IMG/VR virus record: IMGVR_UViG_2648501787_000007
DNA from: a virus
Taxonomy: Duplodnaviria > Heunggongvirae > Uroviricota > Caudoviricetes
Direction: 5' to 3' (one strand)
DNA length: 32,944 nt
The translations under genes and the position numbers were made by a program. Of this stretch, positions 28,425-32,577 are shown in pieces; within the stretch, counting starts at the first letter, position 1; each line of letters opens with the position of its first letter. Under the pieces are notes generated by a model. That model saw only the letters and a list, made by a program, of their open reading frames with translations. It did not search any database and had not been told where the DNA came from.

Positions 28425-28970
28425 TCATATTGCCCCCAGCATGGTGGTGACCATCGCCATCAGTGGACCAGCCAGATCCGGGTCCACACGAAACATCGAC
28501 ACAATGCCTTCACTCATCTCCTTCAGTTTCTGGTGGCGTGGTGCGTTGAGAATGACAGCCTGTTTTGCCTCACTGAGTTCCTTTTCCATTTCAGCCAGCC
28601 GAGCCATGAAGCTATCCTGCTCAACCAGGTGGCCGCGATATTCCAGCGGTAGTACCGCCAGAATTGCCGGGGTCAGTTCACGCACGTTATTTCGGTATTT
28701 TTCAGAATCGAATTTGTTATCGAGGAAGCGGAACAGCTTCTGGCGTGCACGGCTGACATCATCAGGGAAATCGATGGTGCCGCCGCCCTGCTCCCGATAC
28801 TCATTCACAATGAGTGCGGCAACAACATCCTGATTATCTGCAGCCGACCAGGCGCGGACGGCATCACGGATTTTTTCGTGGCCTGGAGCTTGTTTTGTTT
28901 GAGAACGATTTATCACCGCAGTCGGGCTAAATCCGCTAGTCTGTTGGTATGTAAGTGGTTGCATAGTCAT
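28425..28970 (-). CDS. YdaT-like protein at the cII position (Rac-type immunity region)
   Basis: 181-aa ORF with EYREQGGG and TPAILAVLPLEYRGHL segments resembling Rac YdaT as recalled (uncertain recall); stop overlaps the O ORF start. Confidence 0.5.
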   Translation of the reverse strand: MTMQPLTYQQTSGFSPTAVINRSQTKQAPGHEKIRDAVRAWSAADNQDVVAALIVNEYREQGGGTIDFPDDVSRARQKLFRFLDNKFDSEKYRNNVRELTPAILAVLPLEYRGHLVEQDSFMARLAEMEKELSEAKQAVILNAPRHQKLKEMSEGIVSMFRVDPDLAGPLMAMVTTMLGAI

Positions 28971-28994
28971 TGCCTTATCAGTTAACGCCGCAGA

Positions 28995-29222
28995 TTAGGC
29001 GGCAGAATTACTCGCGTTAAACAATGGTGCGAGGTCGGGACGAATATCTGCTGGTTTAATCTTTCCACCAGTGGCTGAGACAATTTTCATTACATAGCGG
29101 GCATCAATTCCGCCACCGTGTAGCCAACGCCAAACAGTGGGCTGGGCTACACCGCATAGATCTGCCAGTCGCTTTTGACTACCTGTAATACTGATTGCGA
29201 GTTGAATGGTTTGATTTGTCAT
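28995..29222 (-). CDS. Cro-like repressor (YdaS-type HTH), ATG at 29222
   Basis: MTNQTIQLAISITGSQKRLADLCGVAQPTVWRWLHGGGIDARYVMKIVSATGGKIKPADIRPDL...; divergent from the cI-like gene across an operator region; the ORF track starts at TTG 29228. Confidence 0.6.
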   Translation of the reverse strand: MTNQTIQLAISITGSQKRLADLCGVAQPTVWRWLHGGGIDARYVMKIVSATGGKIKPADIRPDLAPLFNASNSAA

Positions 29223-29228
29223 TATCAA

Positions 29229-29296
29229 TTCCTATTGGTATTGCAATGAATGAATAATAGCAATGAGTATTAATCCAAGCAATAGCAAAACGTGTT
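29229..29296. promoter_or_regulatory. Right operator region (OR-like) with three related sites ATTGCAAT / ATAGCAAT / ATAGCAAA between cro-like and cI-like genes
   Basis: Repeats at about 29240, 29257 and 29282; the same CAATAGCAAT core recurs at the OL-like region near 31678 and 31703. Confidence 0.5.
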
Positions 29297-29332: not shown

Positions 29333-30025
29333 ATGAAAAAAGAAACTCTTGCTGATCGCTTAAACCTAGCGATGGAACAATCTGGAATGTCTCAAGGCGC
29401 TCTTGCAAAGGCGTCTGGCGTAGCTCAACCCACAATCTGGAGACTGACAAGCGGCAACGCGCGCGGCTCAACAAAAATTGTTGAAATAGCTAATGCATTG
29501 GGTGTTCGAACAGAATGGCTCTCATCAGGCATAGGCCCGATGAGAAATGACGGTCAACAATCAGGGAAGCCTGCTGTCAGCCATTCCAAATACTTCAAAA
29601 TTGACGTTCTTGATATAGAAGTCAGTGCCGGGCCGGGAGTCATCAACCGTGAGTTTGTAGAAGTTCTACGCTCGGTTGAGTACTCGTTTGACGATGCTCG
29701 TCACATGTTCGATGGCAGGAAGGCAGAAAATATCCGCATCATTAACGTGCGTGGTGACAGCATGTCAGGAACGATCGAACCAGGTGATCTGCTGTTCGTT
29801 GATATCACGGTTAAATCTTTCGACGGTGATGGTATCTATGCATTTCTGTACGACGACACCGCCCATGTAAAGCGCCTGCAAATGATGAAGGATAAACTGC
29901 TGGTTATCTCTGATAACAAGAGCTACTCACCGTGGGATCCTATCGAGAAAGACGAGATGAACCGGGTGTTTATCTTCGGGAAAGTTATTGGGAGCATGCC
30001 GCAGACCTACAGGAAGCATGGGTAG
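29333..30025 (+). CDS. CI-type prophage repressor (N-terminal HTH plus C-terminal S24 LexA-like autopeptidase)
   Basis: MKKETLADRLNLAMEQSGMSQGALAKASGVAQPTIWRL... HTH, then GDSM (catalytic Ser) and a conserved Lys in HVKRLQ; the ORF track starts at an upstream TTG 29297. Confidence 0.85.
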   Translation: MKKETLADRLNLAMEQSGMSQGALAKASGVAQPTIWRLTSGNARGSTKIVEIANALGVRTEWLSSGIGPMRNDGQQSGKPAVSHSKYFKIDVLDIEVSAGPGVINREFVEVLRSVEYSFDDARHMFDGRKAENIRIINVRGDSMSGTIEPGDLLFVDITVKSFDGDGIYAFLYDDTAHVKRLQMMKDKLLVISDNKSYSPWDPIEKDEMNRVFIFGKVIGSMPQTYRKHG

Positions 30026-30060
30026 GTAGTATGTAAAGAATTACCTTTGGTTGATTTGTA

Positions 30061-30090
30061 ATAGCTACCGATTACGTTATCGGTAGCTAT
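30061..30090 (+). terminator. Perfect 12-bp stem hairpin (ATAGCTACCGAT-TACGTT-ATCGGTAGCTAT) 36 nt after the cI stop; terminator/attenuator or RNA processing site
   Basis: Inverted repeat read directly; followed by AAGAAATTTTTATGTCTTT. Confidence 0.35.
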
Positions 30091-30364
30091 AAGAAATTTT
30101 TATGTCTTTACTGTGTTTATTTATTCAATACTAGTTGGACTATAGCAATGAAAGATAACAGACAAAACTATACTTTTTGGGCAACTGGTTTTATTTGAAA
30201 AAGACAAAAGCCAGTCTCTATTAGAGCTTAGTGATAATGTTAAATTTTATGACATTAACTCCATCACGTCTAATGATATAATTATTGATGGAGATAAACG
30301 TAGTGACAAAAAAAGAGAGTTTGTAGATTCAATTTTATATTTTGGTGTACTAAACAACCATGTC

Positions 30365-30991
30365 ATGATCGTTCAATCCACATCGCTTCGAGCAAGGGAG
30401 CTTGAGGCGCATTTGAATTGGCTAATTAATACATTCACAGATGAAAAAGAATCTGTGTTAATGCTTCAAGATAAGCCATCCGAAGAAACGATGAAAAAAA
30501 TGGAGAAAGCACCAGCCAAGAGCATAAAAATTGGTGGATTACCCATTACTTCAGAAGTTAAAAATTCAGAGAACCAAACACCCTCCTTTTCAAATGGTTC
30601 GGTGAAGACAATAAAATACCGCCCAATAGGGAAAGGAGGTGCGCTACTAAAAGCATTTTTTGGCGATAACTGGGCAAATGATATAAACATTAAAGATTCA
30701 TTAGATGAGGCCAATTTACAAGTAAGCCTCGAGATTACATACTTCAGAAAAACAAATGATAGCGGTCAAGCTGTTATAGACAGTATTGCTACCTCACTAC
30801 GACATCTAGATGAGGATGATATTAGCATCAAACTTCAAGGCGGTGGGGAAATAACGGGAAAAGAGATAAAATTATCCGGAAAAATTAGCGTTGAACATAA
30901 CAATGGCATTATTGATGAAAATGATTTATTCTTAAAAATGCATAAGTGGCTGTTCTCAAAACTTGATGCCGGAGAATTGGTTGCAAAATAA
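30365..30991 (+). CDS. Hypothetical cytoplasmic protein in the rexA position; frame is open upstream to 30152 and may be a frameshifted ~280-aa gene starting at ATG 30148
   Basis: 208-aa ORF MIVQSTSLRARELEAHLNWLINTFTDEKESVLMLQDK...; AT-rich; no Shine-Dalgarno before 30365; 71 stop-free in-frame codons upstream. Confidence 0.5.
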   Translation: MIVQSTSLRARELEAHLNWLINTFTDEKESVLMLQDKPSEETMKKMEKAPAKSIKIGGLPITSEVKNSENQTPSFSNGSVKTIKYRPIGKGGALLKAFFGDNWANDINIKDSLDEANLQVSLEITYFRKTNDSGQAVIDSIATSLRHLDEDDISIKLQGGGEITGKEIKLSGKISVEHNNGIIDENDLFLKMHKWLFSKLDAGELVAK

Positions 30992-31012
30992 CCTACCAAA
31001 AGGAGGGCGATA

Positions 31013-31519
31013 ATGAAATCGAACATCATCCACCTTATTGGTATGTTGGTCTTCTATGTTGCTGGTTACTTTTTGTTCAAGTCAGCATTGGGCTATATTA
31101 CACCGGGTGTTGTCCTAACAGCTCCGTGGGCTGTGGTTGGACTCATGCAATTGCCATTATCATATTGTATACAAGCCATTTTTAAGGCAAATGAGGCCAA
31201 TGACCACTCGTCTTTAACCCCTAGTGAGGTTAGGCGATTAGTGCCAATAGTCAAATCCAAGAGACTGAAATTGGTTTTATTATTAGCTTTCTATGTATTT
31301 TCAACTTTGTTTGTAATCTTGGGGTTAATAGCAAGCACAAATGATCAAGCCCTACTCTTCAGGGTCTTAAAAATTTCAGGTGGATTACTCTTTATTTCTC
31401 TCTATACCAGTGTATTCGTTCATAAAATAATGGTTGAGCTTCAAGAGTTTAAAGCGTTATTAAACCGAAGAGAATCAGAGAAGAAGGAAAGAGAGTCACT
31501 CCTTGATAGATTAAAATGA
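31013..31519 (+). CDS. Hypothetical 4-TM membrane protein in the rexB position
   Basis: 168-aa ORF with four hydrophobic segments and a charged C-terminal tail (RRESEKKERESLLDRLK); strong AGGAGG Shine-Dalgarno; 21 nt after the preceding ORF. Confidence 0.65.
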   Translation: MKSNIIHLIGMLVFYVAGYFLFKSALGYITPGVVLTAPWAVVGLMQLPLSYCIQAIFKANEANDHSSLTPSEVRRLVPIVKSKRLKLVLLLAFYVFSTLFVILGLIASTNDQALLFRVLKISGGLLFISLYTSVFVHKIMVELQEFKALLNRRESEKKERESLLDRLK

Positions 31520-31527
31520 CCCCCCTC

Positions 31528-31554
31528 CCCGGCCGTCGTGCCGGGTTTTCTTTT
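31528..31554 (+). terminator. Intrinsic terminator ending the cI/rex-like operon (CCCGGC-CGTCGT-GCCGGG followed by TTTTCTTTT)
   Basis: GC-rich hairpin plus T-tract 9 nt after the stop of the membrane-protein gene. Confidence 0.7.
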
Positions 31555-31639
31555 GCCTCCCCTCATCACACACCGTTCAAAAAACCACCATGCCCCTGCT
31601 TCAGTTATCGCTATGCGATGCAAGTCACAAAATTAATTC

Positions 31640-31721
31640 TTTTTGCTATCAAACATTTAATATCAAAACACATCAGTCAATAGCAATAAGTATTGATATC
31701 ACCAATAGCAATAGCTATTAT
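31640..31721 (+). promoter_or_regulatory. OL/pL-like region: -35 TTGATA (31693-31698), 17-bp spacer, -10 TATTAT (31716-31721), with CAATAGCAAT operator repeats at about 31678 and 31703 and an inverted TTGCTAT at about 31643
   Basis: Read directly; the operator core is the same as in the OR-like region. Confidence 0.5.
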
Positions 31722-31797
31722 CATCATATCGCAACAACACAACGATACGGCAACCACCTGATTCACCGTTGCGATGACCGCTTAGATCCGTAGCTTG

Positions 31798-31868
31798 AAT
31801 TTCAGCAGGCTCCGGGAAGTGCGAGGGGTGAAGCGGACGCGTGAACGTCGGTGTGACCAGCTGAAATT
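31798..31868 (+). promoter_or_regulatory. Structured RNA element downstream of the pL-like promoter (9-bp closing stem AATTTCAGC/GCTGAAATT enclosing a GC-rich 53-nt core); possible antitermination or terminator element
   Basis: Inverted repeat read directly; internal GACG-CGTGAA-CGTC hairpin; about 75 nt downstream of the -10. Confidence 0.3.
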
Positions 31869-31914
31869 AACTCAACATTTCATACCTCAGTCGCTTCAAC
31901 GAGGCGGCTTAGTT

Positions 31915-32205
31915 ATGACAACCGGCGGCCATCCACCGCCTGAATACGCGCAGAAGTCTTTATATGTTCAGCAGCCCAGCTTACGGGCAGGAGTTTTTAT
32001 GGTTCATCAACATTACGGAACGCAGACCGTTAATCGCGGTGCGGTCATGCCAGGAATGCTGGTCAAACACAAAGATGGTACCTGGACAGCATCAGCTAAT
32101 TTACGCGGACGGCTATATCTGCATCGCGGCATCGAGCGCACTTATACCCGTGATTTGCTCGTGGAAGTTTTTCTCGACGGACGAGGCAACGGCCTGAATC
32201 ACTAA
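31915..32205 (+). CDS. Hypothetical early protein immediately upstream of gam (possible Kil-like host-killing protein)
   Basis: ATG at 31915 preceded by GAGG; MTTGGHPPPEYAQKSLYVQQ...TWTASANLRGRLYLH...; the ORF track starts at TTG 31795 with an Arg-rich extension that crosses the hairpin element; the Kil resemblance is from uncertain recall. Confidence 0.3.
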   Translation: MTTGGHPPPEYAQKSLYVQQPSLRAGVFMVHQHYGTQTVNRGAVMPGMLVKHKDGTWTASANLRGRLYLHRGIERTYTRDLLVEVFLDGRGNGLNH

Positions 32206-32280: not shown

Positions 32281-32577
32281 ATGAACGCTTATTACATTCA
32301 GGATCGTCTTGAGGCTCAGAGCTGGGCGCGTCACTACCAGCAGATTGCCCGTGAAGAGAAAGAGGCAGAACTGGCAGACGACATGGAAAAAGGTCTTCCA
32401 CAGCACCTGTTTGAATCACTCTGCATCGATCATTTGCAACGCCACGGGGCCAGCAAAAAAGCCATTACCCGTGCATTTGATGACGATGTTGAGTTTCAGG
32501 AGCGCATGGCAGAACACATCCGGTACATGGTTGAAACCATTGCTCACCATCAGGTTGATATTGATTCAGAGGTATAA
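32281..32577 (+). CDS. gam: Gam (GamS form), RecBCD inhibitor
   Basis: 98-aa [63 protein letters not shown]..., near-identical to lambda GamS. Confidence 0.92.

Follow-up and report, generated by a model that had tools for sequence, protein, structure and literature searches.

The Rex genes of bacteriophage lambda (PF15969/PF15968; PDB 8TWQ) encode a soluble protein, RexA, and a protein with four transmembrane (TM) helices, RexB. RexA has a globular domain of seven strands that is split by a four-stranded dimerization domain, itself flanked by four helices, and its structural relatives are RdgC, IML3 and CHL4 (Adams et al., 2024). In a second pair of this type, RexABpp of Pseudomonas putida prophage P1 (PP_5643/PP_5644), both genes are needed for defense; overexpressed RexA leads to RexB-dependent membrane damage, and HHpred ties PP_5643 to RexA at 98% (Rosendahl et al., 2026; PMC12894663). 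In actinophages, prophage-encoded systems that exclude other phages combine a cytoplasmic protein, RexA-like and DNA-binding, with a four-TM protein (Sbash gp30/gp31, CarolAnn gp44/gp43 and Butters gp30/gp31); in Butters, the effector is the soluble protein, which its membrane partner holds in check. Here we analyze a cassette of two genes, A and B, in a 32,944-nucleotide (nt) stretch of Caudoviricetes DNA (IMG/VR record IMGVR_UViG_2648501787_000007; the whole of this stretch is called the window below). We conclude that the cassette is probably a decayed two-component phage-exclusion (abortive-infection) module of the RexAB type that occupies a cI-to-terminator slot for exchangeable cargo in a lambdoid prophage. 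The family is new in that it is divergent in sequence; a RexA-fold sensor joined to a four-TM effector in the rex position is a known arrangement.

The cassette shares its gene order with lambda RexAB: cI, a gene for a soluble protein, a gene for a four-TM protein, a terminator and an OL/pL region follow one another on one strand. A sequence-only reading of this DNA had placed the pair in the equivalent of the rexA-rexB position, between cI and the terminator that precedes OL/pL, with the soluble gene first and the membrane gene second on the cI strand. Our analysis bears this out, and the repressor, gene B, the terminator, the OL/pL-like region and the AT-richness are all present where that reading had put them:

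29297/29333–30025, plus strand: cI-like repressor (helix-turn-helix, HTH, plus S24 peptidase), an open reading frame (ORF) whose RefSeq start is the ATG at 29333; left border of the cargo slot
30026–31527, plus strand: AT-rich cargo cassette, 1502 bp here and 1681 bp when intact; an exchangeable module
30061–30090, plus strand: perfect 12-bp hairpin, ATAGCTACCGAT-TACGTT-ATCGGTAGCTAT, followed by a U-rich stretch (RNA fold z = -2.8)
30148–30198, plus strand: what is left of the start of gene A: its native ATG and 16 codons, then a TGA that results from the frame change
30162–30167, plus strand: deletion junction, the sole remaining ACAAAA copy; codons ~5–65 are missing
30162–30991, plus strand: out-of-frame remnant of gene A, equal to nt 194–1023 of the intact gene for the RexA-fold protein
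31000–31006, plus strand: Shine-Dalgarno sequence AAGGAGG of gene B, read from the sequence and conserved in Klebsiella-type cassettes
31013–31519, plus strand: gene B, intact, encoding a 168-residue four-TM inner-membrane protein (from the ORF, an AlphaFold2 model and hydropathy)
31528–31555, plus strand: intrinsic terminator with the stem CCCGGC-CGTCGT-GCCGGG (31528–31545), then the TTTTCTTTTG T tract
31678–31721, plus strand: OL/pL-like region with AATAGCAAT operator-like repeats and a promoter-like TTGATA-17-TATTAT (31693–31721)

Alignment to sister prophages with other cargo defined the borders of the cassette, which fills the interval from the cI stop codon to the backbone terminator exactly. 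Its GC content is 0.36, as compared to ~0.50 in both flanks.

The size of intact gene A, 1023 nt and 340 amino acids (aa), was established by alignment to E. coli FHI_NMBU_03 and phage Perceval, and the structure of the intact protein was predicted with AlphaFold2 (AF2). The model has a predicted local distance difference test score (pLDDT) of 70.7; it is confident for residues 1–80, 115–190 and 290–335, and residues 190–254 are unmodelled. Segments from the N- and C-terminal parts of the protein together form a seven-strand sheet, between which lies a four-strand, helix-flanked insert. The soluble component has in this model the RexA fold, that is, a split globular domain with an inserted dimerization-type domain, and the order of its strands and helices appears to fit the split two-domain plan of RexA. 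Fold-search scores of A were 9.5 for RexA, 5.9 for RdgC, 5.8 for CHL4, 5.4 for IML3 and 5.3 for CENP-N. By sequence and by profile, no similarity to the lambda proteins is detectable for either protein, whereas the model of A has a RexA-like fold. Unlike lambda RexA (279 aa), A is 340 aa long and contains a variable, unmodelled insert of ~60 aa at 190–254. Residues Y11, R43, H131, E146, R278 and W327 are conserved.

In the window, gene A is broken. It lacks 179 nt (nt 15–193 of the intact gene), lost between two ACAAAA repeats, and the same deletion allele is found in one further locus (L054). The first gene had been described as frameshifted, which is correct in that it is out of frame; a single-base frameshift is ruled out by the alignment, which reveals the 179-nt deletion instead. 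The first in-frame start of the remnant is the ATG at 30365, which opens a 208-aa ORF and has no Shine-Dalgarno sequence. Among the residues removed are Y11, K12, L23, Q24, R43 and N60, all invariant in the family. Because codons ~5–65 are lost and the frame is shifted, the sensor is gone and the two-component system is very probably inactive in the window. Protein B may still be made there.

Gene B of the window matches its counterpart in intact cassettes at 100% identity, and the Shine-Dalgarno sequence is strong for B and weak for A. The AF2 model of protein B consists of four long helices (pLDDT 84.8). Hydropathy profiles of six homologs and of lambda RexB agree with it, displaying four hydrophobic segments, short outer loops, a central loop rich in lysine and arginine and a C-terminal tail of the same kind, so that the four TM helices and the charged tail attributed earlier to the 168-aa product of the second gene are confirmed. 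Both termini are predicted from the positive-inside rule to be cytoplasmic, as in lambda RexB, with which B also shares the four TM helices and the basic central loop. Protein B differs from lambda RexB (144 aa) in its length of 168 aa, in a longer central loop, which is cytoplasmic in this topology and carries the conserved E72-x-R74-R75, and in a long charged C-terminal helix of ~30 aa with no counterpart in RexB. Positions E72, R74, R75, K83, G123, E142, F146 and R153 are invariant.

A number of observations weigh against a RexAB-type assignment, and we gather them here. The model of A is only moderately confident, with 190–254 missing from it, and the RexA/RdgC fold also serves DNA transactions other than defense. 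A small four-TM bundle is generic, and a fold search of B against PDB and BFVD yielded no significant match, returning generic helical bundles and not recovering RexB. (The sole near-significant match, U5P455, with 108 aa and 32% identity, is probably the homolog from Shigella phage SfIV that has been truncated by insertion sequence IS1.) No Pfam family matched A or any of 125 family members at E values up to 10; as a positive control in the same run, lambda RexA was matched to PF15969 at 1e-97 and lambda RexB to PF15968 at 8.5e-92. Alignment of the family with hhalign gave a probability of 0.2% against lambda RexA and 0.1% against RexB, single lambda sequences being a weak test, and the family profiles did not recover 8TWQ from PDB sequences. 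PADLOC-DB v2.0.0, which includes RexAB, Kiwa and the PD-/PDC- entries, gave no match for the E. coli, Pseudomonas, SfIV, Stx2a and Acinetobacter homologs, the sole exception being a weak match to a generic '4TM effector' (E 0.0014). Finally, lambda RexAB itself has roles outside defense.

Relatives of A number 129 at 90% clustering and come from Enterobacterales, Methylococcaceae, Aeromonas, Pseudomonas, Halomonas and others; when 1.84 billion representatives were searched with a profile, 788 clusters had E values up to 1e-3, and 294 of these had E values up to 1e-30. Searching with the single sequence of B, by contrast with this reach, recognized relatives only down to 66% identity. Each distant homolog of A that we inspected is nevertheless followed by a gene for a protein of 160–190 aa that aligns with B at 20–33% identity, the range also seen when the partners are compared with one another, and 50 B-family clusters were recovered with a profile built from them. 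When both families were scored with hidden Markov models (HMMs), a B gene immediately followed A on the same strand in 75 of the 76 IMG/VR loci with enough downstream sequence and in nearly all complete GTDB loci. The pair is retained even where the A homolog has 28% identity, a case in which the B HMM misses the partner. Conservation of the A-B pair from Escherichia to Pseudomonas, Aeromonas, Acinetobacter and Methylococcaceae is more than would be expected by chance. Within E. coli, the cassette, intact or not, occurs in 43 of 5426 complete genomes, with A at full length in 41 of the 43; carriers include the adherent-invasive E. coli (AIEC) strain LF82, in its prophage Perceval. A-B pairs with 46–51% identity are also present on short contigs binned into metagenome-assembled genomes named 'Actinomycetes' (L021) and 'Ureibacillus' (L029); these contigs are most likely mis-binned gammaproteobacterial or phage DNA rather than Gram-positive occurrences.

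Neither protein has a match in Pfam, NCBIfam or PDB sequences, and the PHROGs families that match them are of unknown function only. A literature search that included the DefensePredictor supplements found no paper on the A-B cassette. The proposal that the family is undescribed accordingly holds for the sequence family, which is uncatalogued in Pfam, PADLOC and NCBIfam, and does not hold for its kind, as RexAB-type pairs have already been described in P. putida and in actinophages. In Acinetobacter phage phi1_092021 (L058, 3483–4484), the submitters label the A homolog 'DefenseFinder protein', although neither PADLOC v2 nor Pfam has a match for it. A current defense catalog may already cover the A-B family.

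RexABpp is the best functional precedent for the pair. Like it, A and B lie downstream of a cI-like repressor, and in both cases the four-TM partner has no detectable RexB homology. The two differ in that RexBpp is longer than 181 aa and in that hhalign of A against the single lambda RexA gave no link. Seven marker residues published for RexBpp (W25, F35, L55, T103, S145, G153 and Y181) matched 0 of the 3,378 proteins and ORFs compared; judged by these residues only, A-B would not be near-identical to RexABpp, and distant homology is possible. The actinophage pairs belong to another host phylum, and no sequence link to them was found. A reversed logic of the Butters type, with a soluble effector and a restraining membrane protein, is conceivable for A-B by analogy.

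Transcription of the cassette was assessed in published RNA-seq tables for LF82 (re-analysis by Misson et al., 2023), which give log2 fragments per kilobase per million (fpkm) under five conditions. The cassette of LF82 prophage Perceval is 99.7% identical to that of the window and has an intact A, and all expression values are those of LF82. Gene B (PERCE_42) was expressed at 8.4–10.4, gene A (PERCE_43) at 4.2–9.6 and cI at 6.2–8.1, as compared to 2.3–3.4 for the adjacent genes kil, gam and bet, which were at background. With A, B and cI all far above these silent neighbors, the cassette is transcribed in the lysogen, as had been proposed. The B transcript exceeded that of A in all conditions, by 1.5- to 20-fold, and B was the highest-expressed gene of Perceval. 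Lambda RexAB is alike in this too: the lysogen transcribes both genes and makes an excess of the membrane-gene transcript. In lambda, that excess arises from the additional promoter pLIT. For B, an internal promoter like pLIT or a more stable 3' segment would each explain the excess and are candidates; when conservation of a B promoter was sought in the 3' end of A, in an alignment of E. coli and Klebsiella-type cassettes, the conserved stretch coincided with the conserved peptide NGIIDENDLF...W. In one condition (6 h in Dulbecco's modified Eagle medium, DMEM), A was expressed above cI, which indicates that A has its own promoter and fits the hairpin at 30061–30090. This hairpin belongs to the cassette, between cI and gene A, and may act as a partial terminator or an RNA-stability element. 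Together, these data suggest that cI transcripts partly stop at the hairpin and that A has a regulated promoter of its own.

The expression data bear on a reading in which A is an RdgC-like modulator of recombination or replication for phage DNA metabolism and B is merely co-transcribed. RdgC does appear among the fold-search scores of A. A far higher score nonetheless went to RexA (9.5 versus 5.9), no Pfam RdgC match was obtained for A, the strict pairing of A with B would be left unexplained, and the pair is expressed in the repressed prophage while the phage recombination genes are silent. RdgC (PDB 2OWL) and the kinetochore proteins IML3, CHL4 and CENP-N differ from A in acting in recombination control or as chromatin proteins, in lacking a membrane partner and in not being carried as cargo by prophages. 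We regard this reading as very improbable.

The genomic positions of the pair support its description as mobile cargo. Between the window and 716 complete E. coli genomes that share its cI, homology breaks off at the cI stop codon and returns precisely with the terminator (31528–31555), which is part of the prophage backbone, is common to sister prophages with different cargo and forms the right border of the slot. The A-B cassette is absent from 673 of these 716 prophages. In its place, sister prophages carry DUF6932 with a 310-aa protein, a 353-aa protein with an ASCH protein, or a SIR2 protein, and all three alternative cargoes match PADLOC candidates (PDC-M63, PDC-M11 and PDC-S25, the last being SIR2). 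The slot was delimited in these sister prophages as follows:

L016, 4311–5713: slot between cI and the terminator
L017/L019, 4310–5726: slot between cI and the terminator
L018, 4342–5943: slot between cI and the terminator

Since homology breaks at the cI stop codon and at the terminator, with alternative cargo in between, the slot is sharply bounded and exchangeable. The PDC-M63, PDC-M11 and PDC-S25 proteins occupy the identical slot and are unrelated to A and B, so they provide positional context only.

Across the family, 34 of 74 viral loci and ~10 of 28 GTDB loci, not all of them independent, have a repressor-like (HTH/S24) ORF in the same orientation no more than 700 nt upstream of the pair; repressor-adjacent pairs come from Escherichia, Morganella, Methylobacter, Pseudomonas and Acinetobacter. 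Unlike lambda RexAB, the A-B module also occurs in satellites and beside the antiterminator gene Q: it lies between the primase and capsid genes of a satellite resembling phage-inducible chromosomal islands (PICI-like), and in a P4-like satellite of Aeromonas it follows the primase gene. A Klebsiella prophage, Shigella phage SfIV and Stx2a-converting phages have it adjoining Q, on the opposite strand. The PADLOC candidates in sister slots and the satellite and moron positions make a defense role for the pair plausible.

Individual loci have features of their own. In Stx2a_1447 (L060, 3492–5055), a 34%-identical pair is located between Q and the methylase/tRNA/stx2 region, on the opposite strand, and in a Klebsiella aerogenes prophage (L003–L005) the Q-proximal pair adjoins HicAB. 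A Methylobacter prophage (L012) has the pair behind a repressor and a true RdgC (PF04381, 10263–11174) ~3 kb along the early-left operon, so that two proteins of one fold class are found in a single immunity/early region.

These positions also speak to the idea that the pair mainly modulates the lysis-lysogeny switch of its own prophage, or its maintenance, and is not primarily an anti-phage defense. Such roles have been described for the lambda proteins, RexA biasing the switch toward the lytic state and RexB counteracting it (Adams et al., 2024; Thomason, 2021); A has the RexA fold, and the pair is often found directly behind a cI-type repressor and is expressed with cI in the lysogen. A switch modulator would not, however, be expected without an adjacent cI, as the pair is in PICI-like and P4-like satellites and beside Q, nor to be swapped with unrelated defense candidates and to be missing from most prophages that have the same cI. 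We consider this explanation decidedly unlikely.

A moron unrelated to defense, whether an addiction or toxin-antitoxin-like pair or a host-fitness factor, is another way to account for AT-rich cargo that is expressed in the lysogen and has no match in defense databases, and the A transcript of LF82 was higher in DMEM and in macrophages than in lysogeny broth (LB). The RexA fold of A, the occurrence of the pair in cargo hotspots of satellites and prophages, its defense-candidate neighbors and the experimental precedent of RexAB-type systems all speak against it. Furthermore, A has been lost and B kept with no evident lethality, a poor fit to a toxin-antitoxin pair in which B is the toxin and A the antitoxin. 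Such a role seems quite improbable to us.

Loss of A is recurrent, through many independent inactivating lesions. At least eight distinct A lesions are present in E. coli. Besides the deletion in the window, we found 1-nt deletions at nt 162, 340 and 372, a 2-nt insertion after nt 133, an IS3 insertion at ~nt 410 in E. coli T309.Ta3 and a 5' truncation of A in SZQ1, a 43-kb record; there are further split copies in IMG/VR (L076, L114 and L115) and an interrupted copy (L050), and a Xenorhabdus locus keeps only the last 41 codons of A. The loci grouped as A lesions are L052, L053, L055–L057, L076, L114, L115, L050 and L051, together with T309.Ta3 and SZQ1. B is intact in all copies with A lesions except L050, in which no B-family ORF was detected. 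The sole truncation of B is in Shigella phage SfIV (L059, 3501–4324), whose B homolog is cut to 108 aa by IS1. The sample of broken A genes was partly picked by looking up the truncated ORF, A is twice the length of B, and A is rich in A-runs; the pattern of A loss is for these reasons a lead and not evidence of selection.

This pattern could mean that B on its own provides superinfection exclusion or protects the membrane, for example by keeping DNA from entering or by buffering envelope stress, with A as a dispensable accessory regulator. B mRNA at 1.5- to 20-fold the level of A, the top rank of B among Perceval genes in LF82, the near-universal retention of B in broken-A copies and the strong Shine-Dalgarno sequence of B as compared to the weak one of A would all follow. 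On the other side, the conservation of A and B as neighbors throughout the family argues that they work together; the selection of the sample and the greater length and A-run richness of A lead one to expect more lesions in A; and B itself is IS1-truncated in SfIV. We judge it unlikely that B acts alone in this way. If B alone does exclude phages or protect the membrane, the 'broken' cassette of the window would still be functional.

A B transcript up to 20-fold above that of A, together with the repeated retention of B after loss of A, means that the logic of the system could differ from that of lambda Rex. It is accordingly tenable, though doubtful, that A-B represents a large, unrecognized defense family in its own right, with ~790 clusters (50% identity) in Gammaproteobacteria. 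Its only tie to RexA would be an ancient DNA-clamp fold, and its membrane subunit would have no relation to RexB and might act in part or entirely without A. A family of this description may spread via prophage immunity slots, Q-proximal moron sites and satellites.

Under the RexAB-type reading that we favor, the pair would work as follows. The lysogen would transcribe both genes, with B in excess. Intact protein A (340 aa), with its RexA/RdgC-like fold, would serve as a cytoplasmic sensor or activator, and protein B (~160–190 aa across the family), with its four TM helices, as the membrane effector. A superinfecting phage would switch A on, by analogy to lambda RexAB and P. putida RexABpp; A would then trigger B, and the inner membrane would be depolarized or permeabilized, so that growth stops and the infection is aborted. 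The trigger, the contact between A and B, the effect on the membrane and the defense phenotype are all proposed here on the model of those two systems. The evidence gathered here covers the layout of the locus, how A folds, the membrane topology of B, the conserved pairing, where the pair sits in genomes and, from the published LF82 tables, transcription in the lysogen.

The remainder of the window is that of a lambdoid prophage read in lambda's 'leftward' direction. The repressor has a divergent neighbor:

28995–29228, minus strand: cro-like HTH gene, divergent from cI

Relatives of the cI-like gene are annotated as XRE family or CI repressors (loci L001 and L002). The AATAGCAAT motifs recur between cI and cro, at 29256–29290; their presence in both places, together with the promoter-like site, identifies the region to the right of the terminator as OL/pL-like. 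Beyond the terminator follow a kil-like gene, gam (32281–32577) and bet. The switch region is of the YdaS/YdaT type, with the cro-like gene encoding a YdaS-family HTH protein and a YdaT-domain protein in the cII position (28425–29228). No N-like antiterminator ORF was seen between the pL-like promoter and the kil-like gene (31795–32205 region of the window), and the kil-like gene is annotated in Perceval as a homolog of phi80 Kil. The rest of the window (8000–32944) is mosaic, with ~60% of its length 96–97% identical to induced temperate phages of the ECOR collection. Those ECOR phages (PhiR47_2, PhiR68_2 and others) have other cargo in the slot, in one case annotated as PD-lambda-1.

RexAB was the first abortive-infection system to be discovered, and insight into its trigger and activation has been held back partly because few homologs could be recognized. 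A family that joins a RexA-fold sensor to a four-TM partner offers hundreds of natural variants for studies of how a sensor is coupled to a membrane effector. Its members occur in elements of medical relevance, namely in AIEC strain LF82, in Stx2a-converting phages, in Shigella phage SfIV and in prophages of P. aeruginosa and A. baumannii, and the host range of phages used in therapy may be affected as a result. The slot from the cI stop codon to the terminator, with its alternative defense candidates, is a practical site at which to mine lambdoid prophages for new systems.

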